Assembly (NCBI GenBank): GCA_051747985.1
Contig: JBNJGU010000001.1
Coordinates: forward strand, 1-51,456
Reading direction: 5' to 3'
From: Pseudomonadota bacterium
GTDB taxonomy: Bacteria > Pseudomonadota > Gammaproteobacteria > Pseudomonadales > Pseudohongiellaceae
Length of the DNA stretch: 51,456 bases
The position numbers were made by a program, and so were the translations under genes. Below, piece after piece: positions 16,093 through 51,456 of the stretch. How positions within the stretch are numbered: position 1 is the stretch's first letter; every line of letters begins with the position of its first letter. The notes beneath the pieces were generated by a model that was not told where the DNA came from, searched no databases, and saw nothing but the letters and a program-made list of their open reading frames with translations.

Positions 16093-16104
16093 GAGATCAG
16101 AACA

Positions 16105-19647: not shown

Positions 19648-19724
<77 letters not shown>

Positions 19725-31977: not shown

Positions 31978-33324
31978 CTACGAAGGCGGCTCCAGCAGCC
32001 GTCGCTGCTCCAGTTCCCGGTCCAGCAGTGAGCGACCGGCAAAGGAACGCGAAATCTGTGTGGTGGTCACCACGCTGATCATGGACAGCACCGCCCATTC
32101 GTAGCTGCCGGTGAGCTCGAAGACAATCACCACGGAAGCCAGCGGTGCGCCGATGACGGCCGCGATGCAGCTGGCTGCGCCCAATACCGCATAGGAGGTG
32201 ATCTCCCCGGTGTCCGGGATCATCAGGATATCGAACAGGCCACCGGTCAGCGCGCCGATGAAAAGGGCCGGCGCGAAGACCCCGCCAAAAAAGCCGAAAC
32301 CCAGGCAGAGACTGGTCACCAGGATCTTTCCGATCAGCAGTGCCATGATCAGCCCGATGCTGAACGTGCCAGCCATGGCCAGGTCCACGGTGTTGATGCC
32401 CGAGCCGAGCAGGTGTGGCAGAAAAGGAGACAGGCCGAACAGTATGGCGGCCGGTACCAGGGGGCGTAGCGCCAGCGGCAGGACATTGGCCGCATTGCGC
32501 AGCGGGGCGGCAGTGACACTGATGATGTACAGGGCCACGACCAGGCCACTGGCGATGCCGACGCCGATGGCCGCCACCAGTGTCTGGACATTCAGCACGG
32601 TATTGCCGCCAATGCTGAACAGTTGATGCGGTCCCATCAGCTGCTCCGACACCCAGTAGGCGCCAAAAGCGCTGGTGAGGACCGGCCCGCTGCCCGACAC
32701 CCCGAATTTTCTGAGAATGGCCTCATGGGCGAACAGGGCCGCGCCGATCGGTGCCTCGAATACGGCCGCCAGTGCCGCCGAGGCACCCGCTCCCATGGCG
32801 ATGTCATCCGGAAGCGTGGCTCTGACGCGCTGCAGCAATGCGCCCATGCAGCCGCCAAAGTGTACGAAAGGTCCGAAAATCCCGGCGGACGCGCCCCCGG
32901 CGGTGTTGAGCAGACCCTGCAGGGACGAGAGGATGCCATCACGCAGGCGCGGACTGCGTCCGGTCTGCACCGCATGGACCAGGTCGGCCGGCCCCCGGGG
33001 CATGGCCCGGTGCAGAACCCGCAACACCTGACCTGACAGCAGGGCCGCGCCCAACAGGATGAGGCCGACACTGAGCCGGTAATCCGCTGCCAGGGAAATG
33101 CCGTCGGTGGGCAGGGTTTGCCGCCATATGGCCGCGATGCGGCTGTGGGTGGAGAATACCGCGACGGCCGCCGCGCCGATCAGCATGCCCATCCCCAGGG
33201 CGATGAGCAGATTCAGTACGCGATGCCAGAGGATGCGCGGTCCGGTCTGGTTCTCCGATTCCGGCGTCTCCCTGTTGTTTTTGTGTAGTGTGTTCAACGG
33301 ATCTTCCCGCGGTCGCCCGGGCAT
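31978..33324 (-). CDS. ClC-family voltage-gated chloride channel / H+-Cl- antiporter, no CBS tail
   Basis: 448 aa, polytopic, with ClC selectivity blocks (GSGINT-like, GIFGPF, GGVFAPALFIGA). Confidence 0.9.
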   Translation of the reverse strand: MPGRPREDPLNTLHKNNRETPESENQTGPRILWHRVLNLLIALGMGMLIGAAAVAVFSTHSRIAAIWRQTLPTDGISLAADYRLSVGLILLGAALLSGQVLRVLHRAMPRGPADLVHAVQTGRSPRLRDGILSSLQGLLNTAGGASAGIFGPFVHFGGCMGALLQRVRATLPDDIAMGAGASAALAAVFEAPIGAALFAHEAILRKFGVSGSGPVLTSAFGAYWVSEQLMGPHQLFSIGGNTVLNVQTLVAAIGVGIASGLVVALYIISVTAAPLRNAANVLPLALRPLVPAAILFGLSPFLPHLLGSGINTVDLAMAGTFSIGLIMALLIGKILVTSLCLGFGFFGGVFAPALFIGALTGGLFDILMIPDTGEITSYAVLGAASCIAAVIGAPLASVVIVFELTGSYEWAVLSMISVVTTTQISRSFAGRSLLDRELEQRRLLEPPS

Positions 33325-35642: not shown

Positions 35643-36674
35643 TCAGCCGCGGGCATGTTTCTCGATGGCTGACACCACGAAACCGGATAGGTCCCGCTTG
35701 TCCGAAAGATACTGGTCCAGTCGCTTTCGGTGCGCCTCGCGTCCCATGTACAGCTCGAAGCCGTAGATGACAGCGTCGACGGCACCCGGTTGACTGGCAT
35801 CGACCCAGTGCAGCAGACCCGCGTTCTGCAACTCTGTCACATAGCCCAGTCGGTCCAGGCCAGCACAGACACCCGGCACGCCCAGTATGGCCGACTCGGC
35901 GGCCATGGTCGGGCTGTCTCCGATGACGAGGTCGCAATGCGCCATCAGGTGGTGCATGTCCGCGAGCCGCCCCTGATACTGCATGGGGCGAAGGTCCTCC
36001 GGCAACTCACGCTCACTGCTGATGATGACATGTCCCCTCCGGGACAGGCGATTTACAAGCCGGTGGAGTTGTTCATCCGACAGGCCGGATTTGCCCACAT
36101 CATGATTGGCATTCCACGATACCACCCGGACAAGAAAGTTCTCGTGCGCAGGATCCAGTCCGGCAGCAAGCGCCGTTTCACGTGATGGCTTGAACGTATC
36201 CGGATGCAGGTAGGACAGGTGTTTTGTTCCGGGAAACCGCATTGTCTTGCCGGCCGGTACAGGGGCGTTGTAACTCTCCGGGACGTAGAGGTGATTGATG
36301 AATGGCCAGGTCAGCCGGATCTGCAGTGTGGCTGTTTCATGATCGTAGAAGCTGACGCTGGGGACACCCAGCAGGCGACCGACATGTGAGATGGCCACGC
36401 CCCCGTACCCCACCATCACATCCGGTCGAAAGCGACGACACTCGTGGAATACCCGCATGTCGCGCAGCAACAGTTCCGTGGCCAGTGGCCCCAGACCGGC
36501 CCCGGCACGGGAGACCGGGCGGTGGGGCAGCCCGAACTCATTGAGCAGTTCACAGACGATGTCCTTGTGGCGCGACAGGATCAGCACCTCTGCTCCCCGC
36601 TGCTGCAGTATGCGGATGGGGTTCAGAAAGAACTGGGCATGGGCCGGGTGTACGATATCGAAGAGTACGCGCAT
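35643..36674 (-). CDS. DUF354 family protein (GT-B / UDP-GlcNAc-2-epimerase-like fold)
   Basis: N-terminus MRVLFDIVHPAHAQFFLNPIRILQQRGAEVLILSRHKDIVCELLNEFG matches the characteristic DUF354 opening. Its ATG overlaps the stop of the upstream GT-C gene by 1 nt (TGATG). Confidence 0.7.
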   Translation of the reverse strand: MRVLFDIVHPAHAQFFLNPIRILQQRGAEVLILSRHKDIVCELLNEFGLPHRPVSRAGAGLGPLATELLLRDMRVFHECRRFRPDVMVGYGGVAISHVGRLLGVPSVSFYDHETATLQIRLTWPFINHLYVPESYNAPVPAGKTMRFPGTKHLSYLHPDTFKPSRETALAAGLDPAHENFLVRVVSWNANHDVGKSGLSDEQLHRLVNRLSRRGHVIISSERELPEDLRPMQYQGRLADMHHLMAHCDLVIGDSPTMAAESAILGVPGVCAGLDRLGYVTELQNAGLLHWVDASQPGAVDAVIYGFELYMGREAHRKRLDQYLSDKRDLSGFVVSAIEKHARG

Positions 36675-38323
36675 CAGAATCCGTGATAGAGGGGTTGTTC
36701 CGGGGGCGGGTGATCAGGCGCGACACCGGCCGCGTTCCATATCAAGCGGGTTGTCGTCCCCGGCTCTCCAACAAACCGGTTCCCGCCCCGCTGCAACATG
36801 ATCGTCTCGCCACTTTCATGGAGAATGCCGTTGATCTGCACCGGGTTATCTGTCTCAATCCGGTAATCTCCCGCGATCCGCACCGGATGGCGTTGCCCGT
36901 CGGACGGTGAGGATGGTGGGAAAGTGATCTGGAAACCGGCGATGTGAATGGCTCCCCAGTATGGAACATAGGCCTGGCGCAGCACCTCGACGTCCTCGTC
37001 CAGTAACCATTGTTGTTGGTTATCTGTGAATACCGCCTGGAGGGCCGGCCCGTTGGCCAGCAGCAGTGGTGGTCTCTGTGATGCCAACAGGTCATCCATT
37101 ACCGGTTCGCCCCGATCCAGGTATTGACTCAGTCCCCAGCCGGTCATGAAAAAACCCTGCTTGGGAAAGGAGCTGACCATACTGTTGCGGTCAATATAAG
37201 CAACCGGTTCGTTGAAAATGTCATGCACGGCAGCCAGGGTCTGCCGCTGTGTGACCTGGCCCTTGGGAAGTCCGCGGGTGGTCTGCATCACGGCGCTGGT
37301 CAGCATCAGCACGCAGATCACAAGGAAAACCGGTCGTGACCAGCGGTACAGGGTATGGGCCCCGATGGCCAGAGTGATCATCGCTGGTGCGGTGATGAAC
37401 GGATAGAAATAGGCAAAGGAATTGCGATAAAAAAGTACCGAGAGCAGGGGAGCGGCGAAAAGCAGTGCAACGGTTCCCCTCGTACTGCCCACAATCAGCA
37501 ACACCACAGCGCTGAAGCTCAGCACCAGCCAGATCAGGAACGTGATCGCCTGCGGCAGCAGGCCGGCCTCGAGTAACATGGAGCGTCCCGCGCGCCCGGC
37601 GAAAGCGGTATTACCGGATGCCGCGTCGGCAGGATCAATTCCCAGAGAAAATCCATGCAGCAGATACAGCGCTACGAAACAGACCGCAGCGGAGAGTGTG
37701 CCGCTCAGCACGTGTACCACCAGTCGGGGCTGCCCGTGCTGGCGCGTGTGCCACAGAAGCACCCCGAGAAAGGCTGGAAGATACAACACGGCCTTGATCG
37801 TGACCAATCCGGCCAGACCCACCAGACCGCCAGCGATCGCCGCCCGTTTTGTTGTCATCGAAGGAGTCAGGGTCAGTGCGATCGCCCCCATCAGTAATGA
37901 GGTGGCGAGTGGGTCAGTGCGGAAACTGAATCCCTGTGTGAGTGTAAAACCGGTCGCCAACCATGCCAGCGCCGCGAACAACGCGACGGGCGTGGGGACA
38001 AAGCGACGGGAAGCCACCACCAGGCTCACCAGGGTCAGCAACTGGGCCACAAACATGCCCCAGCGTCCGGCGATCACCTGTTGTATTTCATTACCGGGAA
38101 TCCGGGTCACCCAACCAAACAGGTGAACATGAATTGTCCTCAGCGGGCTGTCCAGTGTCCCCCTCTGCGCGTCATGGATCAGGGACAGGAAATAGAATTC
38201 ATCCCAGTTGATGTTGTGGTGCAGAATAAAGACGATTTGCAACCCCAGCAGCAAAATGAATCCGACGGACAGGGCTGCCAGGTCCGGCCGTCGCAGGCCG
38301 TCAACTCGCCATGCCCCGTTCAT
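36674..38323 (-). CDS. Polytopic GT-C-fold glycosyltransferase candidate (ArnT/PMT/GT39-83-like) with a periplasmic C-terminal domain
   Basis: 549 aa. About 11 hydrophobic helices, a WDEFYF acidic motif right after TM1, and a soluble C-terminal region of about 170 aa. Its ATG overlaps the GT2 stop (4-nt overlap). Confidence 0.55.
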   Translation of the reverse strand: MNGAWRVDGLRRPDLAALSVGFILLLGLQIVFILHHNINWDEFYFLSLIHDAQRGTLDSPLRTIHVHLFGWVTRIPGNEIQQVIAGRWGMFVAQLLTLVSLVVASRRFVPTPVALFAALAWLATGFTLTQGFSFRTDPLATSLLMGAIALTLTPSMTTKRAAIAGGLVGLAGLVTIKAVLYLPAFLGVLLWHTRQHGQPRLVVHVLSGTLSAAVCFVALYLLHGFSLGIDPADAASGNTAFAGRAGRSMLLEAGLLPQAITFLIWLVLSFSAVVLLIVGSTRGTVALLFAAPLLSVLFYRNSFAYFYPFITAPAMITLAIGAHTLYRWSRPVFLVICVLMLTSAVMQTTRGLPKGQVTQRQTLAAVHDIFNEPVAYIDRNSMVSSFPKQGFFMTGWGLSQYLDRGEPVMDDLLASQRPPLLLANGPALQAVFTDNQQQWLLDEDVEVLRQAYVPYWGAIHIAGFQITFPPSSPSDGQRHPVRIAGDYRIETDNPVQINGILHESGETIMLQRGGNRFVGEPGTTTRLIWNAAGVAPDHPPPEQPLYHGF

Positions 38324-39282
38324 GCGCTATGCTTCCGGTCCCGGCTGATGCGCTGCTGTCGCAATTGCCGTGCGCGGATGTCCTGCAGTATGTCGCGATT
38401 GGCGGAGACCAGGTCGGCCAGCAGGCCGGAAGCGAACAGAATCACCGCGATGGCCAGCAGGGCGCCGGACAGGACCAGTGACTGCACATGGCCGCTTCCC
38501 TCACCCTGAGAGTAGAACCACAGGAAACGGGCGATGCCCAATACGCCAGGGGTTCCGATCACCAAGGACACCCAACTGAAAAACGCCAGCGGGCGATAGA
38601 TCACGAACATGCGCAGTATGGTGCCGGCTGAACGGAATACATACTGGCGCATGGAGCGGAACAGCCGGGACGGACGTGTCACCGGGTTCACCCGGACGGG
38701 CACCGAGGCCATGGGGATATTGCGCCGCCCGGCCTGGATGATGGTTTCCAGTGTGTAGCTGTAGGAGTTGATGACATAGAGCCGCGCCGCCGCGTCGCGG
38801 TGATAGGCACGGAAGCCACTGGGAGCATCCGGTATCCGGGTGCCGGATGCCTTTCGTACCACCCAGCTACCCAGGCGTTGCAGTAGCTTCTTGGTGAAAG
38901 AGAAGCTTTCGATCTCCGAGATTGGCCTTTCGCCCACCACGATCATGGCGTCTCCGGCAAGAATCGGTGCCACCAGTGCCGGGATGTCGGCGCCATTGTA
39001 CTGATTGTCGGCGTCCGTATTCACCACGACGTCGGCGCCCAGGGCAAGGGCCTTTTCCAACCCGGCCATGAATGCACGTGCCAGCCCCATGTTGCAACCC
39101 AGTACCAGCACATGGTCCGCTCCGGCCGCTTTGGCCGTGCGTACCGTGTCGTCACTGGAGCCATCATCGATCACCAGCACTTCCACGGTATCAAAGCCGG
39201 GCACCTGGCGCGGGATGGCGGCCAGCGTCTCCGGCAGCGTCTCGGCTTCGTTGAGGCAGGGAATCTGGATGATCAGCTTCAT
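38320..39282 (-). CDS. GT2 polyprenol-phosphate glycosyltransferase (GtrB/ArnC/Dpm1-like)
   Basis: IQIPCLNEAETL, VLVIDDGSSDDT and NTDADNQY (DxD) form the GT2 catalytic domain. Two C-terminal TM helices follow, as is typical of GtrB/ArnC-type enzymes. Confidence 0.85.
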   Translation of the reverse strand: MKLIIQIPCLNEAETLPETLAAIPRQVPGFDTVEVLVIDDGSSDDTVRTAKAAGADHVLVLGCNMGLARAFMAGLEKALALGADVVVNTDADNQYNGADIPALVAPILAGDAMIVVGERPISEIESFSFTKKLLQRLGSWVVRKASGTRIPDAPSGFRAYHRDAAARLYVINSYSYTLETIIQAGRRNIPMASVPVRVNPVTRPSRLFRSMRQYVFRSAGTILRMFVIYRPLAFFSWVSLVIGTPGVLGIARFLWFYSQGEGSGHVQSLVLSGALLAIAVILFASGLLADLVSANRDILQDIRARQLRQQRISRDRKHSA

Positions 39283-40818: not shown

Positions 40819-40835
40819 ACCAGAGGGTGGCCTTT

Positions 40836-42323
40836 ATGAGCCTGTCGCTTCGTCAACTCTTCCTTTTGTTCGTCTCTGCCGGTCTGTTTGCCTGTTCTGA
40901 TCCCGCCCCGGACACAGAATCTGCGGCCGACGGACTGGCTGAATCCGCTACTTCGGCGCAGGGTCAGGAGTCCGCCGACGGTGCGCCGCGAACCGACACT
41001 GACGACCTGAATGCCGAAATCACGCTGGGTAGCGCGGTGAAACGGCTGTGTTCTTCCGTGCTGGTCAGCGGTCGCCATATCGATCATGTCATGGCGGAAG
41101 AGCTGGCCAACCCGGCGCTGGAAAGTGTCGATTTCCGGATTGAAGACAATCTGGTTACCGGCGAGGGCATGGGCCAGACGGTTCGTGCGCTGTACCGTGA
41201 CCACCTGGGCTGCACGTTGGTGAAGGGTACTACCGTCGATGCATTGCAGGCGCAGTACGATCCGGGCGCGTTTCCGGCTTTTCCCGATCCCTCCGACGCC
41301 GAGTGGCCGCTGGGTGACCGTGTGACCCTGCCCTCTGAAGTGTCGGGCGTCGACCTGGAAGCGATCAACCGTGCCGTGGACGGCGCTTTCGACGATATCG
41401 AGCCGGATCAGGACATCGATACGCGGGCCGTGCTGGTGATTCACGAGGGACGGATCATCGCCGAGCAGTATGCCGAACCCTTCCATGCCGATATGCCACA
41501 ACTGGGCTGGTCGATGACCAAGACGGTTACCGCCGCGTTGACCGGCATGCTGGTCGGCGAGGGTCGGCTGCAGGTGGATGCGCCGGCGCCGGTACCGGAA
41601 TGGCAGAGCCCGGACGATGAGCGCGGCGGTATCACGCTGGAGAATCTGTTGCAGATGTCCAGCGGCCTGGAATATTCAGAAGAGTACACGGCCGGTTCGA
41701 TGTCCGATGTCATCCTGATGCTCTACACCACCGACGACACGGCCGGCTTCACGGCGGAAAAGCCGTTGGCACACCCGCCGGGCAGCACTTTCTATTACTC
41801 CAGTGGCACGACCAATGTCATTTCCCGGATCCTGCATGACGAGCTGGGGGACCGGCAGCGCTATTTCCACTTCCCGCGGGAGCGGCTGTTCGGGCCGTTG
41901 GGCATGAATTCGGCGGTGCTGGAGCCCGATGCCACTGGCACCTTTGTGGGCTCGTCCTACATGTACGCCACCCCGCGTGACTGGGCGAAGATCGGCCTGT
42001 TGTACCTTCGGGATGGCGTGTGGAATGGTGAACGCATCCTGCCGGAAGGCTGGGTCGAGACCAGCGTGACACCGGCGGACTCGGCCGAAAACGGCCAGTA
42101 TGGCTACCAGATCTGGCTCAATGCGGGCGCGCCGGACGATCCGATGGACCGGTCGTTTCCCGGACTGCCAGCCAATGCGTACTACCTGTCCGGTTTCGAA
42201 GGGCAGAACATCGTGGTACTGCCGGATCAGGATCTGATCGTACTTCGCATGGGCCTGACCACCCGCGGGCCCCGGCCGGTTTGGACGTTGACCGAGGCGG
42301 TGCTGGAGGCCGTCGAGCAGTAA
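40836..42323 (+). CDS. Serine hydrolase, beta-lactamase/transpeptidase-like (class C / 6-aminohexanoate-dimer-hydrolase-like) lipoprotein
   Basis: Start at ATG 40836 (MSLSLRQLFLLFVSAGLFAC, a lipobox). SxxK motif in WSMTKTV. YSSG-type and downstream blocks are typical of the family. Confidence 0.85.
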   Translation: MSLSLRQLFLLFVSAGLFACSDPAPDTESAADGLAESATSAQGQESADGAPRTDTDDLNAEITLGSAVKRLCSSVLVSGRHIDHVMAEELANPALESVDFRIEDNLVTGEGMGQTVRALYRDHLGCTLVKGTTVDALQAQYDPGAFPAFPDPSDAEWPLGDRVTLPSEVSGVDLEAINRAVDGAFDDIEPDQDIDTRAVLVIHEGRIIAEQYAEPFHADMPQLGWSMTKTVTAALTGMLVGEGRLQVDAPAPVPEWQSPDDERGGITLENLLQMSSGLEYSEEYTAGSMSDVILMLYTTDDTAGFTAEKPLAHPPGSTFYYSSGTTNVISRILHDELGDRQRYFHFPRERLFGPLGMNSAVLEPDATGTFVGSSYMYATPRDWAKIGLLYLRDGVWNGERILPEGWVETSVTPADSAENGQYGYQIWLNAGAPDDPMDRSFPGLPANAYYLSGFEGQNIVVLPDQDLIVLRMGLTTRGPRPVWTLTEAVLEAVEQ

Positions 42324-42410: not shown

Positions 42411-44036
42411 ATGACGGATACCAACTTGCGCTACCGACCCGATATCCGGCTACTCCTGACCCTGGCGGCCTTTGTCGGCCTGTTTCTGGCGCTGACCCTG
42501 CCCAATCGCCTTGCCTGGATCACGCCGCCAGCCTTCATTTTCTTTCCACTGGAACTCATGGTCATCGGGCTTCTGCTATTGGCGCCCGGGCGTATTGGTG
42601 ACGCTCTCCGTATCTTTCTGGCCCTGTTGCTCGGGCTTGGACTGCTACTGCGTGGCGCAGACCTGGTGACGCATGAGATTTTCGCACGACCCTTCAACGT
42701 GATCTTCGACAGCCATCTGCTGGCTGATGGCAGTCGTCTGTTGACCGGCGTGCTGGGCGGTCTCGCCGCTTTCGGTGTTGCACTTTTGCTGGCGGTGGCC
42801 GCGGGTCTGCTGGGCTGGCTGGCCTTCGCCATGTTGGGTCGTATTCAGGTGGTCCTGCGGGCGACGTCGCGTCTGTCAGCCATGGCCATGGTGGTGTTGC
42901 TGTTGGCCTGGGTGGGACTGAAGACCGCTGGCTGGTCGAGGGCCGATACCTACGCCTGGGACCAGCTCGTACTGCACGGCCAGGATACACTCCACAGTAT
43001 CCGCGATATCAGGAGCTTTGCCGAGACGGTCAATGAGGATGTATGGGCCGGCCGCTCTGGTGAAGGGCTTTTCGACCGGTTGCGGGGTAAGGATGTATTC
43101 GTCATCTTCGCCGAATCCTACGGACGGGTTCTCCTGGAGCGTGAGCCGTTTGCCGAGTCGGTGACGGCGACACTGACACGGGCGCAGCAGCAGCTCGAGG
43201 CGGATGGCGTGCACATGCGCAGTGCCTTCCTCACCGCGCCGACGGTCGGTGGGCTGAGCTGGCTGGCTCATGCCTCGGCCCTGTCCGGTGCCTGGATTGA
43301 CAGCGAGACCCGCTACGAGAGCCTGATCATCAGCGAGCGTGTCACGCTGAACCGCCTGTTCCGTGATGCCGGGTGGCGCACCGTGGCCGCCATGCCGGCG
43401 ATCAGCATGGCCTGGCCCGAGGGGCAGTACTATGGCTATGATCACATCTATGATGCCCACAATTTCGGCTACGAGGGCCTGCCTTTCAACTGGGTGACCA
43501 TGCCGGATCAGTATGTGTTGTCCGCCCTGGAGGAGCGGGAGCGCAGCCGCACCGACCGCCCGCCGCTGATGGCCGAGATCGCCCTGATTTCCTCCCATGC
43601 CCCCTGGACCCCGATCGCCGAGCTGGTGCCCTGGGAGCAGGTGGGTGACGGACGTATTTTCAACGAACAGGCACGGTCCGGTCCGGCTCCCGAAGAGGTC
43701 TGGCAGGAGGTGGAGTCGATCCGCTCCCACTATCGCCAGTCCATCGAGTATATGCTCCGTACCATGGTGTCCTACGTGCAGGAATACGGTGACGAGGACA
43801 CGGTCATTCTGCTGCTGGGCGATCATCCGCCGGCGCCGTTGGTGTCGGGTGACACGGATGGCAGGGACGTGCCGGTACACCTGATCGCGCGCGATCCCGC
43901 TGTCATGGATGCCGTGGCCGACTGGGGCTGGCAGCCGGGGCTGTTGCCCGACGCCGATGCCCCGGTGTGGCGCATGGACCGCCTGCGTGACCGTTTTGTG
44001 GAAGCATTTTCCGGGGAGCAGAGGGGGAGCGAATGA
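42411..44036 (+). CDS. Membrane-anchored alkaline-phosphatase-superfamily transferase (LtaS/sulfatase-like, phosphoglycerol/phosphoethanolamine-transferase type)
   Basis: Five N-terminal TM helices followed by a periplasmic sulfatase-like domain (VFVIFAESYGR, APTVGGLSW, ALISSHAPW, LLLGDHPP). Confidence 0.7.
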   Translation: MTDTNLRYRPDIRLLLTLAAFVGLFLALTLPNRLAWITPPAFIFFPLELMVIGLLLLAPGRIGDALRIFLALLLGLGLLLRGADLVTHEIFARPFNVIFDSHLLADGSRLLTGVLGGLAAFGVALLLAVAAGLLGWLAFAMLGRIQVVLRATSRLSAMAMVVLLLAWVGLKTAGWSRADTYAWDQLVLHGQDTLHSIRDIRSFAETVNEDVWAGRSGEGLFDRLRGKDVFVIFAESYGRVLLEREPFAESVTATLTRAQQQLEADGVHMRSAFLTAPTVGGLSWLAHASALSGAWIDSETRYESLIISERVTLNRLFRDAGWRTVAAMPAISMAWPEGQYYGYDHIYDAHNFGYEGLPFNWVTMPDQYVLSALEERERSRTDRPPLMAEIALISSHAPWTPIAELVPWEQVGDGRIFNEQARSGPAPEEVWQEVESIRSHYRQSIEYMLRTMVSYVQEYGDEDTVILLLGDHPPAPLVSGDTDGRDVPVHLIARDPAVMDAVADWGWQPGLLPDADAPVWRMDRLRDRFVEAFSGEQRGSE

Positions 44037-44782
44037 TGCCGCGCACTGGCTGGAGGGAGCGATGGGGGCTATGGCGGTCGTTATTGATGTATTACGGCAT
44101 CCCCGGCCGTCAGGCCCGGATGCGCCGCTTCTACGGGCAGTTCATCCGGCCCGGCGACCTGTGTTTCGACATCGGCGCGCATGTCGGCAACCGGCTGTCG
44201 GTCTGGCGGGCGCTGGGAGCCCGCTCGGTGGCCGTGGAACCGCAGCCACTGCTGATGGAGACACTGAGGCGACGCTATGGCAACGATCCGGGCATCACGC
44301 TGGTGGAGGAGGCCATCGGTGCCGGGCCTGGCGAGGCCACGTTACATATCAGCACCCGCACGCCCACCGTCACCACGATGTCGCGCGAGTGGATTTCCCG
44401 TGTACAGCAGGATCCTTCCTTCCGGGGCGTGCAGTGGGACCGGGAGGTGACGGTTCCGGTGACCACGCTGGATGAGTTGATCGAGCGTTGTGGCGAGCCG
44501 CGTTTCTGCAAGATCGATGTCGAAGGGTTCGAACTGGACGTGCTGCGGGGACTGTCGCGTCCACTGGCGGCGCTGTCCTTCGAGTACATTCCAGCGACCA
44601 TGGGGTTCGCGGTGGACTGTATCCGGCGGCTGGAAGAGCTGGGCGGTTATGAATACAACCTGGCACCTGGAGAGACGCATCGTCTGCAGTCGTCGCGCTG
44701 GCGATCGCCGGAGCAGATGATGGAAGCGCTGCAACGGATCACGCAGGGCAGTGGTGATGTCTATGCCCGGCGTGTGAGCTGA
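44033..44782 (+). CDS. FkbM-family SAM-dependent methyltransferase
   Basis: CFDIGAHVGN, SVAVEPQP and KIDVEGFELDVLRG are canonical FkbM blocks. Its ATG overlaps the stop of the upstream transferase (ATGA). Confidence 0.85.
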   Translation: MMPRTGWRERWGLWRSLLMYYGIPGRQARMRRFYGQFIRPGDLCFDIGAHVGNRLSVWRALGARSVAVEPQPLLMETLRRRYGNDPGITLVEEAIGAGPGEATLHISTRTPTVTTMSREWISRVQQDPSFRGVQWDREVTVPVTTLDELIERCGEPRFCKIDVEGFELDVLRGLSRPLAALSFEYIPATMGFAVDCIRRLEELGGYEYNLAPGETHRLQSSRWRSPEQMMEALQRITQGSGDVYARRVS

Positions 44783-44807: not shown

Positions 44808-45137
44808 ATGATACATATCGCCCTTCACTTCATCGTTCCGATGCTGACCGCCCTGGCGTTCTATCGTGGGCGCTGGCATCAGGCCGCCGGTGTCATGGTG
44901 GCCACCATGGTGGTGGACGTGGATCATCTGTTGGCGGATCCGGTCTATGACCCCGAGCGGTGCTCCATCGGTTTTCATCCGCTGCACACGGCGCCGGCCA
45001 TGGCTCTTTACGTGGGGTTGCTCGTGGTTCCCCTGCTGGTCGGGAGCGATCGAACCGGGTGGCGGGTATTGCACTGGATCGGTGTCGGGCTGGTGATCCA
45101 CATGGCACTGGATGGCGCGGATTGCCTGCCTTTCTGA
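44808..45137 (+). CDS. Small His-rich 3-TM membrane protein (DUF6122-like)
   Basis: 109 aa (MIHIALHFIVPML..., VDVDHLLADPVYDP, GFHPLHT). It lies 25 nt after the FkbM gene. The family assignment is from memory only. Confidence 0.45.
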   Translation: MIHIALHFIVPMLTALAFYRGRWHQAAGVMVATMVVDVDHLLADPVYDPERCSIGFHPLHTAPAMALYVGLLVVPLLVGSDRTGWRVLHWIGVGLVIHMALDGADCLPF

Positions 45138-45150
45138 CCAGGATGCCGGG

Positions 45151-45978
45151 TCAGTGAGCTTTTGTGTCTGGTTCCGGCAGCGCGAGAATATCCGTGTGTC
45201 CCACAATGCAGGTACCGGTTGCCGCATTCGATTGACGGAATCGGACCCAGTCCTTCAGAGAGCTCGCATCGAGACGTGAATCCGGCTCCACGGCACCGGC
45301 GATTCCCTCTATCAGTGCATCCACCATGGCCTGATCGGTTCCGTCCAGATTCCAGGGACTGCTGGCGGTACGAACCGTGAATCCGGCGTGGGTGAAGATC
45401 TGCTCCATGCGGGCTCCGGCATCCGGGCCCAGTGCCGGGCCGAATCCCTTGTCCCGGCGTTGGTCCTTGTTGAAGGCGTCGAGAACCAGGTCATCCAGTG
45501 GATGGGCGGGGCTCCATCGGGTCATGCCGTCGTAGTTGAGCGCGGCGTACACGCCGGTGGATGATCGGGAGTCACCGGCTTTCAGTGTGCTGGCCAGGGT
45601 TTCGAGGAAGTTGGCGGACACCAGGTCAAACAGCGCCGAGGCGGTCACCAGTCGGGCGCCCGCCAGTGGCAGGTCGGTGACCCGTGCCAGATCCGTCGGA
45701 CAGGCCTCGATCCGATGCCGCTGGCCGTGACGGCGTTGTGCCTCGGCCAGCAGTTCCCGGTCGTGATCCACCAGGCGCCAGCTCAAAGGTGTCGCGTGGC
45801 TATGGTCCGCGGTCAATGCGCGCAATGTGGAGCCGGTGCCGGCGCCCAGATCGACCACAATGGCTCCGGTACCCGGACCGGCCAGCCATTGCCGTGCCTG
45901 TTCCAGCAGGGCACCGTCCCGGGCACGTCGGTCAGCGTCCTCGCGCAGGTCCAGCCAGTCGATACTGAATCCACTCAT
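45151..45978 (-). CDS. Class I SAM-dependent methyltransferase
   Basis: SAM motif I VVDLGAGTGS, then an acidic residue (LVDHD) at motif II. Its ATG overlaps the stop of the upstream GT4 gene by 4 nt. Confidence 0.75.
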   Translation of the reverse strand: MSGFSIDWLDLREDADRRARDGALLEQARQWLAGPGTGAIVVDLGAGTGSTLRALTADHSHATPLSWRLVDHDRELLAEAQRRHGQRHRIEACPTDLARVTDLPLAGARLVTASALFDLVSANFLETLASTLKAGDSRSSTGVYAALNYDGMTRWSPAHPLDDLVLDAFNKDQRRDKGFGPALGPDAGARMEQIFTHAGFTVRTASSPWNLDGTDQAMVDALIEGIAGAVEPDSRLDASSLKDWVRFRQSNAATGTCIVGHTDILALPEPDTKAH

Positions 45979-47072
45979 GTCTGTCGTACCTCGTCAATAA
46001 GCTGCGCAACCCGACGGGCGCTGTCGCTCCAGGTGGGCAGAGTGGCTGCCGCGCGGCGGGCCCCGGCCTGCAACTCCCGGCGCAGTGATTCCCTCGTCAG
46101 AAGACTGCGGATAGCCTCGCCCAATGCCTTCGGATCATCCGGCGGCACCAGCAGACCGGCGGTGTCCGGCACCACGTCCGGCACGGCACCGGCGCGGGCC
46201 GCGATCACCGGCAGCCCGGCAGCCAGGGCTTCGGCGAACACCATGCCATAGCCCTCGAATCGTGATGGGAGCACAAACAGGTCGGCCTGTCGGTATTCGG
46301 TCTGCAGGTCATCCACGGCTCCGACCAAGCGTATACGGTCCTGCAACCGGGCACGGTTCACCCGGTCCTGTAATGCAGCGGCCCAGGCCGGGTCGAAACC
46401 GGTTCCGCCCACGAATCGTGCCTGCCAGGGCAGGTGGGGCACCAGGGCAAGTGCATCAATCAGTACATCGTGGGCCTTGCGCCGGGTCAGGGAAGCCACA
46501 GTCAGCAGTTGTGGCGGGGCACCGTCACAGGGAGAGAAGGGAACCCGTTCAGTGCCGGGTCTGGCCACCACGATACAGTCCATGGGCACACCGTATTCCG
46601 CGGTCAGGATCCGCGCGGTGTGGTCGCTGGTGACCACCACGGCCCGGGTAAATTGCAGTGCGCGTTGCTCCGAGGCCCGAAACGCCCGCTGTTGCGAAGC
46701 GTCCAGTCCCGATTCCAGTGCCAGCGGATGGTGGCACAGAGCGATCAGCCGAAGGCGTCGTGCCTCGGCTTCTGCCACGTCATCCAGCACACCGAGCGCG
46801 AGGCCGTCGATCATCACGATGGCGTCGTCCGGCAGCGTCGCCAGGGTTTTCCGGGCGCCCCGCCGGGCGGATTCATCGGGAAAAGGAAAGCCTTCGGGTA
46901 GCGCAGTGGGCTGCACGTCCAGACCCACTTCACGCATTCCATCGATCAGGCGGCGATCGTAGTGATAGCCGCCGGTTGGCGTGTCGAGGCGGCCGGGATA
47001 GGCGAAATACAGGGTTGTAGCGTTCACAGGTGATCTGATCCGTTCCGGAGAGGCTGCCGTATTCAATGGCAT
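45975..47072 (-). CDS. Glycosyltransferase family 4 (GT-B, retaining, RfaG-like)
   Basis: The C-terminal EX7E region (FVLPSRFEGYGMVFAEALAAGLPVIA) is typical of GT4 enzymes. Confidence 0.85.
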   Translation of the reverse strand: MPLNTAASPERIRSPVNATTLYFAYPGRLDTPTGGYHYDRRLIDGMREVGLDVQPTALPEGFPFPDESARRGARKTLATLPDDAIVMIDGLALGVLDDVAEAEARRLRLIALCHHPLALESGLDASQQRAFRASEQRALQFTRAVVVTSDHTARILTAEYGVPMDCIVVARPGTERVPFSPCDGAPPQLLTVASLTRRKAHDVLIDALALVPHLPWQARFVGGTGFDPAWAAALQDRVNRARLQDRIRLVGAVDDLQTEYRQADLFVLPSRFEGYGMVFAEALAAGLPVIAARAGAVPDVVPDTAGLLVPPDDPKALGEAIRSLLTRESLRRELQAGARRAAATLPTWSDSARRVAQLIDEVRQT

Positions 47073-47124
47073 CGTAAACCATCGCGGAGTGTCGTGCTTG
47101 CTTCAGTGACAGGCCCGGCATACC

Positions 47125-47775
47125 ATGAATCCGTTATACCAGCATGTCGAGCGTGTGATGTCCAAACTTTCAGTGACCAGAAAGGCCTGTGCCCGAATAC
47201 CCACCGCCTGCGGCGACTTTCAGCTGTGTTACTACACCAATACGCTGGACAGCAAGGAGCACCTGGCCCTGTATATGGGTGATCCGGCCAGCGCTGATTC
47301 GGCGTTGGTGCGGGTCCATTCCGAATGCTTCACCGGAGACGTGCTGGGCTCGCGCCGCTGCGACTGCGGGGAGCAGCTGGACCAGTCCATGGCCATGGTG
47401 GCCAGGGCCGGGACCGGCGTCATCCTGTACATGCGCCAGGAAGGTCGCGGCATCGGGCTGCTGGAGAAACTGCGGGCGTACAATCTGCAGGACCAGGGGT
47501 TCGACACGGTGGATGCCAACCTGATGCTGGGGCACGAGGCGGACGGGCGGGACTATTCGCTGGCAGCCCTGATGCTGCGCGACCTGGGGGTCGACTCGGT
47601 CCGCCTCATCACCAACAACCCCGCCAAGATCAGCGCTCTGGTCGCGGCCGGTATCGATGTCTCGGAGCGGGTGTCACTGGAAGTGGCGGCCAATACGGAC
47701 AATGCCGATTACCTGATGACCAAGGCACAGCGTATGGATCATCTGTTGCAATGCAAACCCGCCAGCACCCAGTGA
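47125..47775 (+). CDS. ribA: GTP cyclohydrolase II
   Basis: [33 protein letters not shown] (three zinc Cys), [19 protein letters not shown] and [14 protein letters not shown] are all present. An alternative start is ATG 47158 (MSKLSV...). It may be a pathway-specific paralog rather than the housekeeping ribA. Confidence 0.9.
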
Positions 47776-47779
47776 TGCC

Positions 47780-48511
47780 ATGAATCTCAATCAACGCATC
47801 GAGCAATGGCTGGTCGGCGCGCAACGGGATTTTCATGAGCAGGCTGCTGGCACGAACGGCGATCGTCGCCCTCATGTAACGCTCTGCTACGCGCAGAGCT
47901 GGGATGGCAGTATCACCACGGACCCCGGCGTGACACTGGCGCTCAGCAGCGATGCGGGCATGCGGATGACGCATCAGCTGCGCAGCCTGCATGATGGCAT
48001 CCTGGTCGGCATCGGGACGGTGCTGGCCGATGACCCCCGTCTGACCGTGCGCGAATGGACCGGTAATGATCCGCAGCCGATCGTTGTGGACAGTCAGTTG
48101 CGCATGCCTCCGTCCTGTTACCTCTGCCGGAATGGCGAGCGGCGCTGCTGGGTGCTGACCACACCCGAAGCGGCCACCGAACGTGATGACTGTGAGCTGA
48201 TTACGGTACCCGGCAACGCCGCCGGCCATGTGGACCTGCAATCGGCGCTGGAGATCCTGTATGAACGCGGTATCCGCAGCCTGATGGTGGAAGGCGGCGC
48301 CGCCGTGATCACGGCGTTCCTGCGGGCCCGTCTGGCCGATGCCACCGTGCTCACCGTGGCACCGGTATTGATCGGGGGCTACAATGCCATCGGCAGACTG
48401 GGCGATCAGGACAGGGCCTCCTTTCCGCATATTGCGCCACTGCACAGTCAGCAACTGGAGAATGAACTGATCGTATGGGGAACACTCCACTACAGAGGCG
48501 AGAGCGGGTGA
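47780..48511 (+). CDS. RibD C-terminal-domain reductase (diaminohydroxyphosphoribosylaminopyrimidine reductase-like), no deaminase domain
   Basis: 243 aa. RPHVTLCYAQSWDGSIT, LRSLHDGILVGIGTVLADDPRLTVR and SLMVEGGAAV match the DHFR-like RibD-C/Rib7/ArfC fold. No CDA-type zinc motif is present. Confidence 0.8.
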   Translation: MNLNQRIEQWLVGAQRDFHEQAAGTNGDRRPHVTLCYAQSWDGSITTDPGVTLALSSDAGMRMTHQLRSLHDGILVGIGTVLADDPRLTVREWTGNDPQPIVVDSQLRMPPSCYLCRNGERRCWVLTTPEAATERDDCELITVPGNAAGHVDLQSALEILYERGIRSLMVEGGAAVITAFLRARLADATVLTVAPVLIGGYNAIGRLGDQDRASFPHIAPLHSQQLENELIVWGTLHYRGESG

Positions 48512-49530
48512 GCGACGATACCGGAAGCACCAGCGCCTCACAGCTGTGGTTCACCGAGCCGCTGCATGTCGAGGTGCGGGAGGCAACGCTGCCCGCACCG
48601 GCGCCGGATCAGGTCCTGGTCAGGACGCGATATTCGGCGGTGAGCGCCGGCACCGAATTGCTGGCATACCGGGGACAACTGCCCCCATCCATGGCACTGG
48701 ACAGCGCGCTGGATTCACTGGGAGAGTCTTCCGACTATCCCCTGCAATACGGCTATGCCTGTGTCGGTGAAGTGCGGCAGAGTGGCAGCGCAGTCGACCC
48801 GGCCTGGAAAGGGCGTCAGGTGTTTTCCTTTCAGCCCCATGCCAGTCATTTTCTGGCCCGTCCCGAAGAGCTGAAACCCGTGCCCGACGACCTGCCTGCT
48901 CGGGTCGCCGTGTTCCTGCCCAATATGGAAACCGCGGTAAACCTGGTGCACGACGGCCGCCCGCTGGCCGGTGAGCGGGTCGTGGTGCTGGGCCAGGGCA
49001 TCGTCGGGCTGTTGTTGACCGCGCTGCTGGCGCGCCACCCGCTCCATTCACTGGTGGCCATCGAGGGCCGGCCGGAGAGGCAGGAGCTGGCGCTCCGCCT
49101 GGGCGCCGACACCGTGCTCAGTCCGGAGGAGGCGGTCGGGCAGTCGGTTGCCGCCGACGCCGACCTGCTCTACGAAGTCAGTGGTCAGCCGGAGGCACTC
49201 AACCTGGCGATCGGACTGAGTGGCTACGCCAGTCGTATCGTCATCGGTAGCTGGTATGGCAGCAAGTCCGTGCCGATCGAACTGGGTGGATCGGCGCATC
49301 GCAATCGACTGCAGCTGATCACCAGTCAGGTCAGCAGCGTGGCGCCCGAGCTGGGAGGTCGCTGGGACAAGCAACGCCGTTTCGAACTGGTCTGGGACCT
49401 GCTTCGCCAGCTCGACCCGACACCACTGATCACGCACACTCTGCCGCTGCGGGAGGCCGGAAAGTTGTACCAGCAACTGCATGAAGCGCGGTCCGGCATC
49501 GTGCAGCCTTTATTCCATTACCCCGATTGA
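48508..49530 (+). CDS. Medium-chain (zinc-type) dehydrogenase/reductase family protein
   Basis: GTG 48508 overlaps the preceding stop (GTGA). GroES-like N-domain (VLVRTRYSAVSAGTEL) and Rossmann motif VVVLGQGIVGLL. Confidence 0.8.
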   Translation: MSDDTGSTSASQLWFTEPLHVEVREATLPAPAPDQVLVRTRYSAVSAGTELLAYRGQLPPSMALDSALDSLGESSDYPLQYGYACVGEVRQSGSAVDPAWKGRQVFSFQPHASHFLARPEELKPVPDDLPARVAVFLPNMETAVNLVHDGRPLAGERVVVLGQGIVGLLLTALLARHPLHSLVAIEGRPERQELALRLGADTVLSPEEAVGQSVAADADLLYEVSGQPEALNLAIGLSGYASRIVIGSWYGSKSVPIELGGSAHRNRLQLITSQVSSVAPELGGRWDKQRRFELVWDLLRQLDPTPLITHTLPLREAGKLYQQLHEARSGIVQPLFHYPD

Positions 49531-49540
49531 CAGGAAGCCT

Positions 49541-49927
49541 ATGTATACCGTTGCCGTCACCCGTGACTTCATTGCCAACCATTACCTGATCGGAGGGGAC
49601 TGGGGAGACGAGAACCACCCCCATGCCCATCATTACGTCGCCGAAGTGCGTATCGAGAGCGATACGCTGAACGAACACGGTTACCTGGTCGATATTGTGG
49701 AGATCGAGGCGGCGCTGAATGAGGTCACCGGATATTTCCGCGACAGCATGCTCAATGACAAGCCTGAATTCGCCGGACTCAATCCGAGCCTGGAGCATTT
49801 CAGCCGCATTCTGAGCGAGAAACTGCTGGCGGGCATCACGCCACCCGGCAGCGGCGCGCTGACCGTGAAACTGTGGGAGAACGACACCTGCTGGGCGGCG
49901 TTCCGGCAGCCGTTTGATCCGGAGTGA
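49541..49927 (+). CDS. 6-pyruvoyl-tetrahydropterin synthase / QueD-family (COG0720) protein, divergent active site
   Basis: Start at ATG 49541 (MYTVAV...). ANH...HPHAHHY aligns with the QueD AAH...CGRLHGHSF region, so the three zinc His are kept and Cys is replaced by Glu. GYLVDIVEIE and MLND blocks are conserved. Confidence 0.8.
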   Translation: MYTVAVTRDFIANHYLIGGDWGDENHPHAHHYVAEVRIESDTLNEHGYLVDIVEIEAALNEVTGYFRDSMLNDKPEFAGLNPSLEHFSRILSEKLLAGITPPGSGALTVKLWENDTCWAAFRQPFDPE

Positions 49928-49949: not shown

Positions 49950-50807
49950 TCAGTCCGGGTTCTCTGATTCCAGTCGGGCCGCAATACGTTCTGCCTCTTC
50001 CTCCTTCGCGGCCTCGATGACCGCCATCAGGTCCACAAGATCGGCACTGGCGGTGGGATGTTCGTAGCGCCCGGTCAGGGTGCTGTCCGGTTGCAGTTCG
50101 CCGCTCTCGTACAACGACCAGATTTCCCTGGCGTAATCGGTCTCCAGCAGTTTCGGGTCGAAGCGGGCAAACCAGCGACGCATGTTGTCGACATCCCGCT
50201 CCAGCATCCTTCCGGCGCTGTTGTTGCCGGCCGCATTGACCGCCTGCGGCAGGTCGATGATGACCGGTCCTTCAGGATCCACCAGTACATTGAACGGTGA
50301 CAGGTCGCCGTGGACCAGCCCCGCGCACAGCATGCGCACGATCTCGGTGATGATGCGTCCGTGATAGTCCCGGGCGCGCTCGGGGTCCAGCGCGATCTGT
50401 CCCAATTGCGGCGCCACATCACCCTGCTCATCAGTGATCAGTTCCATCAGCAGAACGCCGTCCACGAAAGACAGCGGCTCGGGCACCCGTACTCCGGCCG
50501 CGGCGAGCAGGCGCAGTGCCTCGACTTCAGCGTTGAGCCAGGCCTGCTCCTGTTCCTTCTGCCCATAGCGGGTCTTGCGGTTCATGGCCCGGTTGCGACG
50601 GGTGTTGCGACCGCCACGGCCTTCCTGGTATTGCACGGCCTGCTTGAAACTGCGCTGCGAGCTCTCCTTGAAGACCTTGGCGCAGCGCCGCTCATCGCCG
50701 CAGCGCACGATATAGACCTGGGCCTCCTTGCCGCTCATCAGGTGACCGATGACCTCGTCGATCAGACCATCATCAATGAGGGGTTGCAGGCGTTTGGGCA
50801 CTTTCAT
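49950..50807 (-). CDS. RIO-type (RIO1-like) atypical serine protein kinase
   Basis: Start at ATG 50807 (MKVPKRLQPL...). SGKEAQVY, CAKVFK (Lys), RLLAAAGVRVPEP, LVHGDLSPFNVLV (catalytic loop) and IIDLPQAV (metal-binding D) are hallmarks of RIO kinases. Confidence 0.8.
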   Translation of the reverse strand: MKVPKRLQPLIDDGLIDEVIGHLMSGKEAQVYIVRCGDERRCAKVFKESSQRSFKQAVQYQEGRGGRNTRRNRAMNRKTRYGQKEQEQAWLNAEVEALRLLAAAGVRVPEPLSFVDGVLLMELITDEQGDVAPQLGQIALDPERARDYHGRIITEIVRMLCAGLVHGDLSPFNVLVDPEGPVIIDLPQAVNAAGNNSAGRMLERDVDNMRRWFARFDPKLLETDYAREIWSLYESGELQPDSTLTGRYEHPTASADLVDLMAVIEAAKEEEAERIAARLESENPD

Positions 50808-50991
50808 GAACAGCGGGTCTCTGGTGGTTGGATGTCCCGCGATTCTCTCATTGTGACGCCTGTTTCGCCAGTTCTCACGGGTAGCGCTCCAGGGTTTTTT
50901 ATATGTCTGTATGTGCGATGGCGCACACGCGGAGAGCCCATCCGCGCGTAGACTGTCTGCATGCAGATGCGCAATTGAGGATTCCGGCACC

Positions 50992-51456
50992 ATGAAAACA
51001 ATACAGGCTTCCTGTCCCGATACGGTTCAGCAGCCGGAACAGAACCACCTGTTGGGCTCATTGGGTGCGGAGAGCATGGCCCGCCTGCGTGGTCATCTGA
51101 AGCTCATCCATCTGCCGTTGGGAAAAGTGATCTACGAGCCGGGCGTGAAAATGCAACATGTGTATTTCCCGACCGATTCCATCATTTCGTTGCTGTACGT
51201 CATGCACGACGGCGCGTCCGCCGAGATTTCCGTGGTCGGTAATGAGGGCGTGCTAGGAGTGTCCGTGTTCATGGGGGGCGAAAGCACGCCAAGCCGGGCC
51301 GTGGTGCAAAGCGCGGGAGAGGCGTACAGCCTGCCGCGCCAGATACTCAAGACCGAGTTCAACCGCCACGGTGAACTGATGGAATTGATGTTGCATTACA
51401 CCCAGGCGTTGATCACCCAGATGGCACAGACTGCTGTCTGCAACCGACATCACAGT
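50992..51456 (+). CDS. Crp/Fnr-family transcriptional regulator (3' end outside the window)
   Basis: Not in the track because no stop falls inside the window. ATG 50992 is in frame to the last base. Product MKTIQASCPDTVQQPEQNHLLGSLGAESMARLRGHLKLIHLPLGKVIYEPGVKMQHVYFPTDSIISLLYVMHDGASAEISVVGNEGVLGVSVFMGG... shows the cNMP-binding beta-roll pattern. Confidence 0.75.
   Translation, partial: MKTIQASCPDTVQQPEQNHLLGSLGAESMARLRGHLKLIHLPLGKVIYEPGVKMQHVYFPTDSIISLLYVMHDGASAEISVVGNEGVLGVSVFMGGESTPSRAVVQSAGEAYSLPRQILKTEFNRHGELMELMLHYTQALITQMAQTAVCNRHHS

Follow-up and report, generated by a model that had tools for sequence, protein, structure and literature searches.

A conserved gene cassette around GTP cyclohydrolase II with a candidate role in making a GTP-derived, lipid-linked head group

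The DNA analysed here (the window) is a stretch of 51,456 nucleotides, positions 1 to 51,456 of contig JBNJGU010000001.1 (assembly GCA_051747985.1), from a gammaproteobacterium of the family Pseudohongiellaceae. Near its end lies a divergent group of six genes encoding a GTP cyclohydrolase II (GCH II), a RibD_C-only reductase, an MDR-superfamily dehydrogenase, a PTPS-like T-fold protein, a GT4 glycosyltransferase and a class I methyltransferase (MT). These genes very probably act together in a specialised pathway that is not riboflavin synthesis. They belong to a cassette of 9-10 genes, conserved from marine Gammaproteobacteria to Streptomyces, whose product is undescribed. We give even chances to a model in which the cassette builds a GTP-derived, glycosylated and methylated head group joined to a membrane phospholipid. 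An earlier note, made from the sequence alone, had suggested a tailored (glycosylated, methylated) GTP-derived heterocycle; we retain that suggestion but not the free, soluble nature of the product, as linkage to genes for a CDP-alcohol phosphatidyltransferase and a flippase-like protein makes a lipid-linked head group the likelier outcome.

Conservation and extent of the cassette

Close relatives of the MDR protein number in the thousands in marine and freshwater Gammaproteobacteria, and, with one genome scanned per species, 456 genomes encode one. Eighty loci were retrieved, from Pseudohongiella, Saccharospirillum, Marinimicrobium, Halieaceae, Cellvibrio and Methylococcales; loci flanked on both sides by at least 8 kb, 43 in number, are called full loci below. 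Searches with the window proteins (tblastn) found the six genes in identical order and orientation in dozens of genomes of several gammaproteobacterial families, an arrangement far beyond chance. The reductase, MDR and PTPS-like genes are each present in 43 of the 43 full loci, the GT4 gene in 42, the MT gene in 36 and the GCH II gene in 38, so that GCH II is dispensable within the cluster. The idea put forward earlier, that the six genes form one functional unit, has therefore been checked against gene neighbourhoods and is supported by the conserved co-occurrence in the 43 full loci.

Its restriction to six genes did not survive. Clustering of all open reading frames (ORFs) of the loci exposed three more conserved partners: a CDP-alcohol phosphatidyltransferase (CDP-OH transferase; 40/43 full loci), an LPG_synthase_TM flippase-like protein (39/43) and a membrane protein that we call SULF (39/43). 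All nine core families occur together in 29 full loci, and an FkbM-family methyltransferase is an accessory member found in the closest relatives only (14/43). Independent gene calls on a Pseudohongiella contig place ten genes within 8.65 kb, with overlapping ends. The linkage also persists through rearrangement: in Methylomonas the GT4 gene lies downstream of the PTPS-like gene in the same orientation, with the three membrane genes at a distance of a few kb, and in a Cellvibrio locus (L070) the membrane genes are inverted but still linked. The earlier caution that the GT4 and MT genes might belong to a bordering envelope-glycan region is turned around by these data, since the SULF and FkbM genes on that side belong to the cassette (Table 1).

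Reading of the ORFs, together with Pfam and NCBIfam profile searches for family assignment, confirmed the positions, spacing and families first proposed for the six genes, as well as the 52-nt gap between the GT4 and GCH II genes. The GCH II stop codon (TGA, 47773-47775) is separated by 4 nt from the reductase ATG at 47780; the reductase stop overlaps the MDR GTG start within GTGA (48508-48511); and between the MDR stop (TGA, 49528-49530) and the PTPS-like ATG at 49541 lie 10 nt that contain AGGAAG. On the minus strand, the MT and GT4 genes overlap by 4 nt. The longest-ORF starts of the MDR (48475) and PTPS-like (49481) genes are probably too early, since homologues begin near 48508 and 49541. 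No consensus sigma-70 promoter and no Rfam element was detected in the 52-nt divergent region.

Two of the three membrane genes are known here from relatives. In the lineage of the window, the PTPS-like gene is followed by an insertion that holds a RIO1-like kinase gene, a Crp-like regulator gene and signalling genes. The nearest relative, 94% identical in nucleotides, loses synteny at ~50878, and the window thus ends before the CDP-OH transferase and flippase-like genes; in a second relative the flippase-like gene resumes past the insertion. The end of the flippase-like gene was sought in the last 400 nt of the window, where the start of the Crp-like regulator was found instead. Judging from the relatives, this genome would carry both genes beyond the window end.

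Table 1. Positions of the cassette genes and of other features in the window
Feature	Position	Strand	Remarks
SULF, LtaS/EptA/MCR-1-like, putative phospho-head-group transferase	42411-44036	+	541 aa; Pfam Sulfatase weak, 1.7e-4
FkbM-family S-adenosylmethionine (SAM) methyltransferase, accessory member	44033-44782	+	PF05050 3e-15, TIGR01444 6.4e-25; overlaps SULF stop codon
MT, class I SAM methyltransferase, unnamed family	45151-45978	-	weak Methyltransf_25 match
GT4 retaining glycosyltransferase	45975-47072	-	PF13692 and PF00534, ~1e-32
Divergent intergenic region GT4/GCH II, presumed shared control region	47073-47124		52 nt
GCH II, Tyr type	47125-47775	+	PF00925 2.8e-67
RibD_C-only pyrimidine reductase	47780-48511	+	PF01872 4.2e-45
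MDR-superfamily dehydrogenase	48508-49530	+	GTG start; weak MDR match in Pfam/NCBIfam
PTPS-like T-fold protein	49541-49927	+	ATG start; PF01242 6.8e-25
RIO1-like kinase, PA4780 family	49950-50993	-	NF041645 6e-134
Crp-like regulator (start)	50994-51456	+	
DUF6122 small membrane protein	44808-45137	+	PF19617 7e-30
PF00144 beta-lactamase/serine hydrolase	40827-42323	+	
Glycan-type group	35643-39282	-	DUF354 protein, 549-aa ORF with no Pfam match, GT2
CLC chloride channel	31978-33324		
Amidohydrolase-family paralogue	30505-31872	-	PF01979/PF07969
Amidohydrolase-family paralogue	29276-30508	-	PF01979/PF07969
Amidohydrolase-family paralogue	27281-28711	+	PF01979/PF07969
tRNA	19651-19724		
TonB-dependent receptor	16039-18984		
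Kdo transferase WaaA	14597-15877		
TonB-dependent receptor	5671-8250		
Lipid A acyltransferase	2813-3856		PF03279
Carbamoyltransferase	44-1333		

A counterpart of the cassette is found in Streptomyces coelicolor. The SCO6650-SCO6655 locus encodes a CDP-OH_P_transf protein, an MDR, the PTPS-like SCO6650, a GT4, an LPG_synthase_TM protein and GCH II (SCO6655), and uncalled ORFs in the locus add an MT homologue and a creatininase-family gene. The core set is thus shared down to the unnamed methyltransferase family, with identities to the window proteins of 50% for GCH II (2e-56), 39% for GT4 (6e-49), 36% for MDR (5e-35), 35% for MT (4e-21) and 24% for the PTPS-like protein (1.5e-11). The Streptomyces MT homologue, read at 11616-12971 (+) in locus L082, is extended at its N-terminus by ~190 aa of low-complexity sequence, with much Gly, Ser, Ala and Glu, that is absent in the gammaproteobacterial proteins.

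The soluble enzymes and the fate of GTP

GCH II scores 250 bits against TIGR00505 (cutoff 205.85) and, across 63 loci, keeps the zinc cysteines (HSEC...RCDCG) and the tyrosine equivalent to E. coli Y105 (RAYNLQD). It is predicted to be active and to form DARoPP; the earlier view of an active enzyme, based on the three zinc cysteines, is borne out, and the deformylation tyrosine can be added to it. The Streptomyces GCH II differs at this switch position, having Met (RAMALQ) where the window protein has Tyr (RAYNLQ). According to Spoonamore and colleagues (2006), the Met form, SCO6655, reportedly stops at the formylated intermediate FAPy. A bacterial enzyme of the creatininase family is a proven FAPy/AFRPP deformylase that gives DARoPP (PMC9478397). 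An ORF of this family (PF02633, 5.6e-67), uncalled in the source annotation, lies between the LPG_synthase_TM and GCH II genes of L082 (14044-14808, minus strand). It is plausible that this ORF encodes an FAPy/AFRPP deformylase partnering the Met-type GCH II, and that both versions of the cassette, in Streptomyces and in Gammaproteobacteria, arrive at DARoPP.

The second enzyme, of 243 aa, matches PF01872 only and has no deaminase domain, and its best matches in the PDB are Rib7 (4HA7) and archaeal reductases. The residue at the specificity site is Lys in bacterial RibD (EcRibD K152/BsRibG K151), Thr in fungi and Asn in archaea; wild-type yeast enzyme prefers DAROPP, and a T35K mutant shows a ~3-fold preference for the deaminated substrate (PMC3631187). 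In the window this residue is Cys, and across the family (n = 77) it is Ser in 62, Cys in 11, Ala in three and Thr in one, but never Lys. Together with the Rib7/archaeal kinship, the absence of Lys in 77 of 77 proteins supports reduction without prior deamination, the archaeal/fungal order that had been suggested for this deaminase-less enzyme. The predicted reaction would convert DARoPP to 2,5-diamino-6-ribitylamino-4(3H)-pyrimidinone 5'-phosphate.

GCH II followed by a DAROPP-type reductase constitutes the first two fungal/archaeal riboflavin steps, and a 2016 review tied PTPS-IV to archaeal F420 synthesis on unpublished work, with the role of PTPS-V unclear (PMC5041015). A housekeeping or back-up supply of riboflavin or F420/FO precursors in the archaeal/fungal reaction order is nevertheless very improbable. 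In tblastn searches of the window, the 80 loci and loci L081-L083 with hand-entered query sequences, DHBP synthase, lumazine synthase, riboflavin synthase and FolE gave no match (E<=1e-4); RibA, as a positive control, matched 69 subjects. The E. coli deaminase domain likewise found no match in the window or any locus. The lack of lumazine synthase, DHBP synthase and riboflavin synthase first seen in the cluster thus extends to all the loci searched, including those of Streptomyces. No FMN riboswitch (RF00050) was matched nearby, and no CofG/H- or FbiC-type gene is found among the conserved families. GCH II is missing from the cluster in 5/43 full loci, so that another copy must exist elsewhere in those genomes, and the invariant partners, GT4 and CDP-OH transferase among others, have no role in flavin synthesis. 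The cassette resembles the early fungal and archaeal steps (Rib7, ArfC-type) in pairing the GCH II product with a stand-alone RibD_C enzyme whose specificity residue is small and not Lys, but continues with MDR, T-fold, GT4, methyltransferase and lipid enzymes in place of a deaminase and the lumazine, DHBP and riboflavin synthases. From the bacterial riboflavin operon (ribD-ribE-ribBA-ribH) it differs in lacking the bifunctional RibD, the specificity Lys, the downstream rib genes and the FMN riboswitch.

The dehydrogenase had been described as zinc-type. Its place in the MDR superfamily stands, but the zinc type does not, as Ser, Tyr and Ala replace the Cys, His and Glu (GHE motif) of the catalytic zinc site. 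It shares the overall fold of zinc-dependent MDR alcohol and polyol dehydrogenases and lacks their catalytic zinc ligands. The protein is BchC-like or polyol-dehydrogenase-like, with a Rossmann fold of the NAD type; the acidic residue ending beta-2, typical of NAD-dependent enzymes, is present in 13 of 13 proteins. In Foldseek searches with an AlphaFold2 (AF2) model, threonine, sorbitol, idonate, butanediol and galactitol-1-phosphate dehydrogenases were nearest (TM 0.72-0.76).

The PTPS-like protein, first described as a COG0720 (PTPS/QueD) homologue, does belong to this superfamily (PF01242), but by motif fits neither PTPS-I, -II or -III nor the SCO6650 type, and scores 42.9 bits against the PTPS-I/QueD profile TIGR03367 (cutoff 89.25). 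Its motif is E-x3-H-[S/A]-H. The zinc His triad is retained, as is the T-fold Glu by which 2-amino-4-oxo-pyrimidine rings (pterin or pyrimidine) are anchored, and a further Glu occupies the position of the QueD catalytic Cys; the window protein (WGDEN...HAH, ENxPHAH) has the complete triad. The motif is kept in 77 loci, and the His triad, anchoring Glu and Glu-for-Cys are found in 82-96 of 98 diverse representatives. At E<=1e-10, an exhaustive search yielded 251 clusters at 50% identity. The PDB entry nearest to the window protein is SCO6650 (3D7J, E 3e-8), deposited as an uncharacterized protein.

The cassette protein shares the PF01242 T-fold with PTPS-I to -IV and, like the active PTPS enzymes, keeps the His triad and anchoring Glu, but its motif sets it apart from each. 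PTPS-I (QueD) has CxxxHGH with the catalytic Cys, and a queC/queE context, where the cassette protein has Glu; PTPS-II has CxxxxxHGH; and PTPS-III, as defined in PMC5041015, has ExxHGH in a folate context, so that the cassette Glu stands one residue further from the His pair. PTPS-IV, the SCO6650 type, has FGPAQ (FGPAQ...HGA in SCO6650 itself) and has lost the zinc site and catalytic triad that the cassette protein keeps. The FGPAQ motif of PTPS-IV, and a neighbourhood of the PTPS-IV node with PF00925 and PF01872, were noted in 2017 with no function attached (PMC5445326), and the same neighbourhood surrounds the cassette PTPS-like gene. Neither queC/queE, folE, folK nor other fol or que genes are found among the conserved cassette neighbours. 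By its motif, then, the protein represents a distinct COG0720 subfamily, and queuosine, folate and biopterin PTPS roles are ruled out by motif and gene context.

The nearest structures to the GT4 protein are sucrose-phosphate synthase, MshA, BshA, PimB' and PimA, enzymes whose substrates are sugar phosphates, polyol phosphates or phosphatidylinositol. No PDB relative was found for MT. Other pathways in which a methyltransferase or glycosyltransferase tailors a GTP-derived heterocycle do not account for the set. A toxoflavin-type cluster (toxABCDE) is ruled out because its partner genes are absent: the cassette has no deaminase-containing ToxE and no ToxC/ToxD-type genes. The biopterin-glucoside set (GCH I, PTPS-II, sepiapterin reductase (SR) and BGluT) differs in relying on GCH I, where the cassette has GCH II, and on a sepiapterin reductase, which the cassette lacks. 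We also rejected an anti-phage defence system, to which a PF20706 "GT4-conflict" match might have pointed: none of eight cassette proteins had a convincing PADLOC match, the best being MT against mad2 (3.5e-4).

No described pathway in the literature matched the gene set, in line with the first impression that it is unlike the riboflavin, folate, queuosine, toxoflavin and biopterin-glucoside sets. No functional assignment was found for the gene combination, the SCO genes, CDP-alcohol together with GCH II, or ribityl/pyrimidinone lipids, and no paper on the genes neighbouring SCO6650. Likewise, no paper was found that gives a product or role for the set or ties it to lipid enzymes, although many subscription papers lay outside the search and a description may exist.

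Membrane partners and a possible lipid-linked product

The CDP-OH transferase of the relatives matches PF01066 (1.8e-17), has multiple hydrophobic segments and finds its nearest structures in PssA and PgsA. In its motif, D-x2-D-G-x2-A-R-x8-G-x3-D-x3-D, residues D218, D221, G222, A225, R226, G235, D239 and D243 are invariant (n = 25). The gene calls of the Streptomyces locus and the Pseudohongiella contig include no cytidylyltransferase in the cassette, which makes CDP-diacylglycerol the likely donor. The flippase-like protein resembles the flippase part of MprF (LPG_synthase_TM, PF03706, 9e-34; TIGR00374).

SULF, annotated as "hypothetical" almost everywhere, is a polytopic membrane protein with an extracytoplasmic domain of the alkaline-phosphatase superfamily. 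In its AF2 model (pLDDT 80) helices span residues 10-208, and Foldseek against the PDB returned LtaP (4.6e-9) and full-length MCR-1 (2.8e-8), then LtaS, EptC, GacH and PbgA; the matches to LtaP, LtaS, MCR-1, EptC and GacH range from 5e-9 to 1e-6. Among 35 sequences, the metal and catalytic residues E235, H396, D471 and H472 do not vary, and the candidate nucleophile, Thr278, is present in 31. SULF thus shares with LtaS, EptA/MCR-1, OpgB and GacH the N-terminal helical membrane domain, the alkaline-phosphatase fold and the Glu/His/Asp-His residues. It differs from them in that the sequence similarity is marginal and that its gene has a CDP-alcohol transferase gene and a flippase-like gene of its own next to it, an arrangement suggestive of a dedicated donor lipid, not phosphatidylglycerol (PG) or phosphatidylethanolamine (PE). 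The periplasmic glucan synthesis genes opgG-opgH (MdoG/MdoH) directly follow the CDP-OH transferase gene in 17 of the 43 full loci (L003, L006, L083 and 14 others), a weak lead to periplasmic glucans as acceptor for SULF.

With these families in mind, one may outline a pathway. Its first two steps rest on residue-level evidence, and the joint working of the genes on their conservation. The Tyr-type GCH II would convert GTP to DARoPP, and the RibD_C reductase would reduce the ribosyl to a ribityl chain with no deamination beforehand. The NAD-type, zinc-less MDR and the zinc/Glu T-fold enzyme may then remodel the ribityl intermediate. Our preferred guess, which is speculation, is that the ribityl 2'-OH is oxidised and the 5-amino group condenses with the resulting ketone, possibly along with side-chain chemistry. 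The outcome would be a 7,8-dihydropterin resembling dihydroneopterin phosphate, with a dihydroxypropyl-phosphate side chain, the same end as that of the Amadori and ring-closure half of GTP cyclohydrolase I, but reached by a reduce-then-oxidise route. This unit would be glycosylated by GT4 and methylated by the methyltransferases. With CDP-diacylglycerol as donor, the CDP-alcohol phosphatidyltransferase may then attach phosphatidate at a free hydroxyl group of this unit, and the MprF-flippase-like protein may carry the lipid to the outer leaflet. In Gammaproteobacteria, the LtaS/EptA-like SULF may finally hand the phospho-head group on to an acceptor in the periplasm or outer membrane.

The same soluble enzymes could instead make a free glycosylated and methylated ribityl-diaminopyrimidine or pteridine, serving as cofactor, pigment, signal or secondary metabolite, with the membrane genes representing export or a separate module. 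The six genes are indeed the tightest unit and share a common 52-nt divergent region, and two full loci (L043 and L072) contain the soluble genes and GT4 with no membrane genes within 10 kb. Glycosylation of pterins by a GT-B enzyme is known, BGluT is among the weak matches of GT4 (1e-6), and the GT4 relatives MshA and BshA use soluble acceptors. However, the CDP-alcohol phosphatidyltransferase and flippase-like genes track the soluble genes in ~40 of 43 full loci, through rearrangements and into Streptomyces, and no dedicated exporter family is conserved in the cassette. We therefore consider a free product unlikely, about one case in four being left to it.

Still less probable, in our judgement, is that two unrelated neighbours are involved: a GTP-cofactor module (GCH II, RibD_C, MDR and PTPS-like) beside an envelope module (CDP-OH transferase, flippase-like protein, SULF, and perhaps GT4, MT and FkbM) that decorates a periplasmic glucan or lipopolysaccharide (LPS) with an ordinary head group. 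Ordinary phosphatidylglycerol serves OpgB and other enzymes of the SULF type, the window has LPS and glycan genes elsewhere, and the position of opgG-opgH after the CDP-OH transferase gene in 17/43 full loci could be read in the same way. Yet the linkage holds in Methylomonas, which lacks opgGH there, and in the Streptomyces locus, which has no opg genes; the Streptomyces GT4 and MT genes likewise go with the soluble ones; and ordinary head-group donors need no dedicated CDP-alcohol transferase.

Several points weigh against the lipid-linked model itself. Beyond the reductase step, it is drawn entirely from the families and the linkage of the genes. As the loci were chosen by their similarity to the MDR protein and are related by descent, the counts do not represent independent events. 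The window itself contains neither the CDP-OH transferase gene nor the flippase-like gene; synteny breaks at ~50878, at the RIO kinase/Crp-like insertion. Soluble phosphodiesters, too, are among the products of the CDP-alcohol transferase family. The sequence similarity of SULF to LtaS/LtaP is marginal (E ~0.05), and a profile search against PDB sequences added nothing over the single-sequence search (E 0.056); its putative nucleophile lies in a loop of low model confidence, and Thr is replaced by Val in 4/35. Finally, the Streptomyces cassette has neither RibD_C nor SULF within 10 kb, and SCO6650 (FGPAQ...HGA) is without the Glu and the third zinc His; with these differences, the Streptomyces and gammaproteobacterial versions may make different products.

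If the head group is lipid-linked, the closest parallel in logic would be the synthesis of phosphatidylinositol phosphate, phosphatidylinositol mannosides (PIM) and mycothiol (PIP synthase with PimA or MshA), in which a polyol phosphate from dedicated soluble enzymes, CDP-alcohol coupling and a GT4 enzyme recur. There, the polyol comes from glucose-6-phosphate through inositol-phosphate synthase, whereas that of the cassette would come from GTP; the likeness is one of logic alone. The cassette would then amount to a cross between this head-group logic and the head-group transfer of LtaS, EptA and OpgB, but with a purine-derived building block. We know of no described member of such a purine-derived head-group class. 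In its fullest and more tentative form, to which we give about one chance in three, the model foresees a new phospholipid class with a glycosylated, methylated pteridine or ribityl-diaminopyrimidine head group, made by a route that bypasses GTP cyclohydrolase I and transferred by SULF onto an envelope polymer, osmoregulated periplasmic glucans being a candidate.

Were the lipid-linked model correct, hundreds of bacterial species would divert GTP into a membrane-bound heterocycle that lipidomic and envelope studies have not described; the carriers include marine Pseudohongiella and Saccharospirillum, Cellvibrio, methanotrophs and most Streptomyces. It would provide a biological context for the orphan Streptomyces proteins SCO6650 and SCO6655, both studied in vitro, and a function for an uncharacterised COG0720 subfamily, and it may reveal a GCH-I-independent route to the pterin ring. 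It would also imply a new envelope decoration, a purine-derived membrane lipid common to Actinobacteria and Proteobacteria, and a new donor lipid for envelope modification of the LtaS/EptA/OpgB type, which is relevant to antibiotic resistance and osmoadaptation.

Other genes in the window

Some neighbours of the cassette were considered as members and rejected. The PF00144 serine hydrolase stands beside SULF in the window, and a PF00144 gene stands beside GCH II in Streptomyces (L081/L082, ~15570-16880, minus strand), but none is found in the 80 gammaproteobacterial loci, and its adjacency is probably a coincidence. The DUF6122 and RIO kinase genes are lineage-specific insertions. DUF6122 lies between the FkbM and MT genes, a position at which it occurs in 0/80 loci. 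The RIO1-like kinase/Crp-like insertion stands where relatives carry the flippase-like gene, and in L002 it also encodes a sensor protein of ~850 aa. The insertion could regulate the cassette in this lineage or have nothing to do with it.

Further upstream, the glycan-type group is not conserved with the cassette and is probably the envelope-glycan region of the earlier note. The three amidohydrolase-family paralogues are followed by the CLC chloride channel gene. Still further upstream lie envelope genes, encoding a carbamoyltransferase, a lipid A acyltransferase (PF03279) and the Kdo transferase WaaA, and two genes for TonB-dependent receptors; a tRNA gene follows the second of these.

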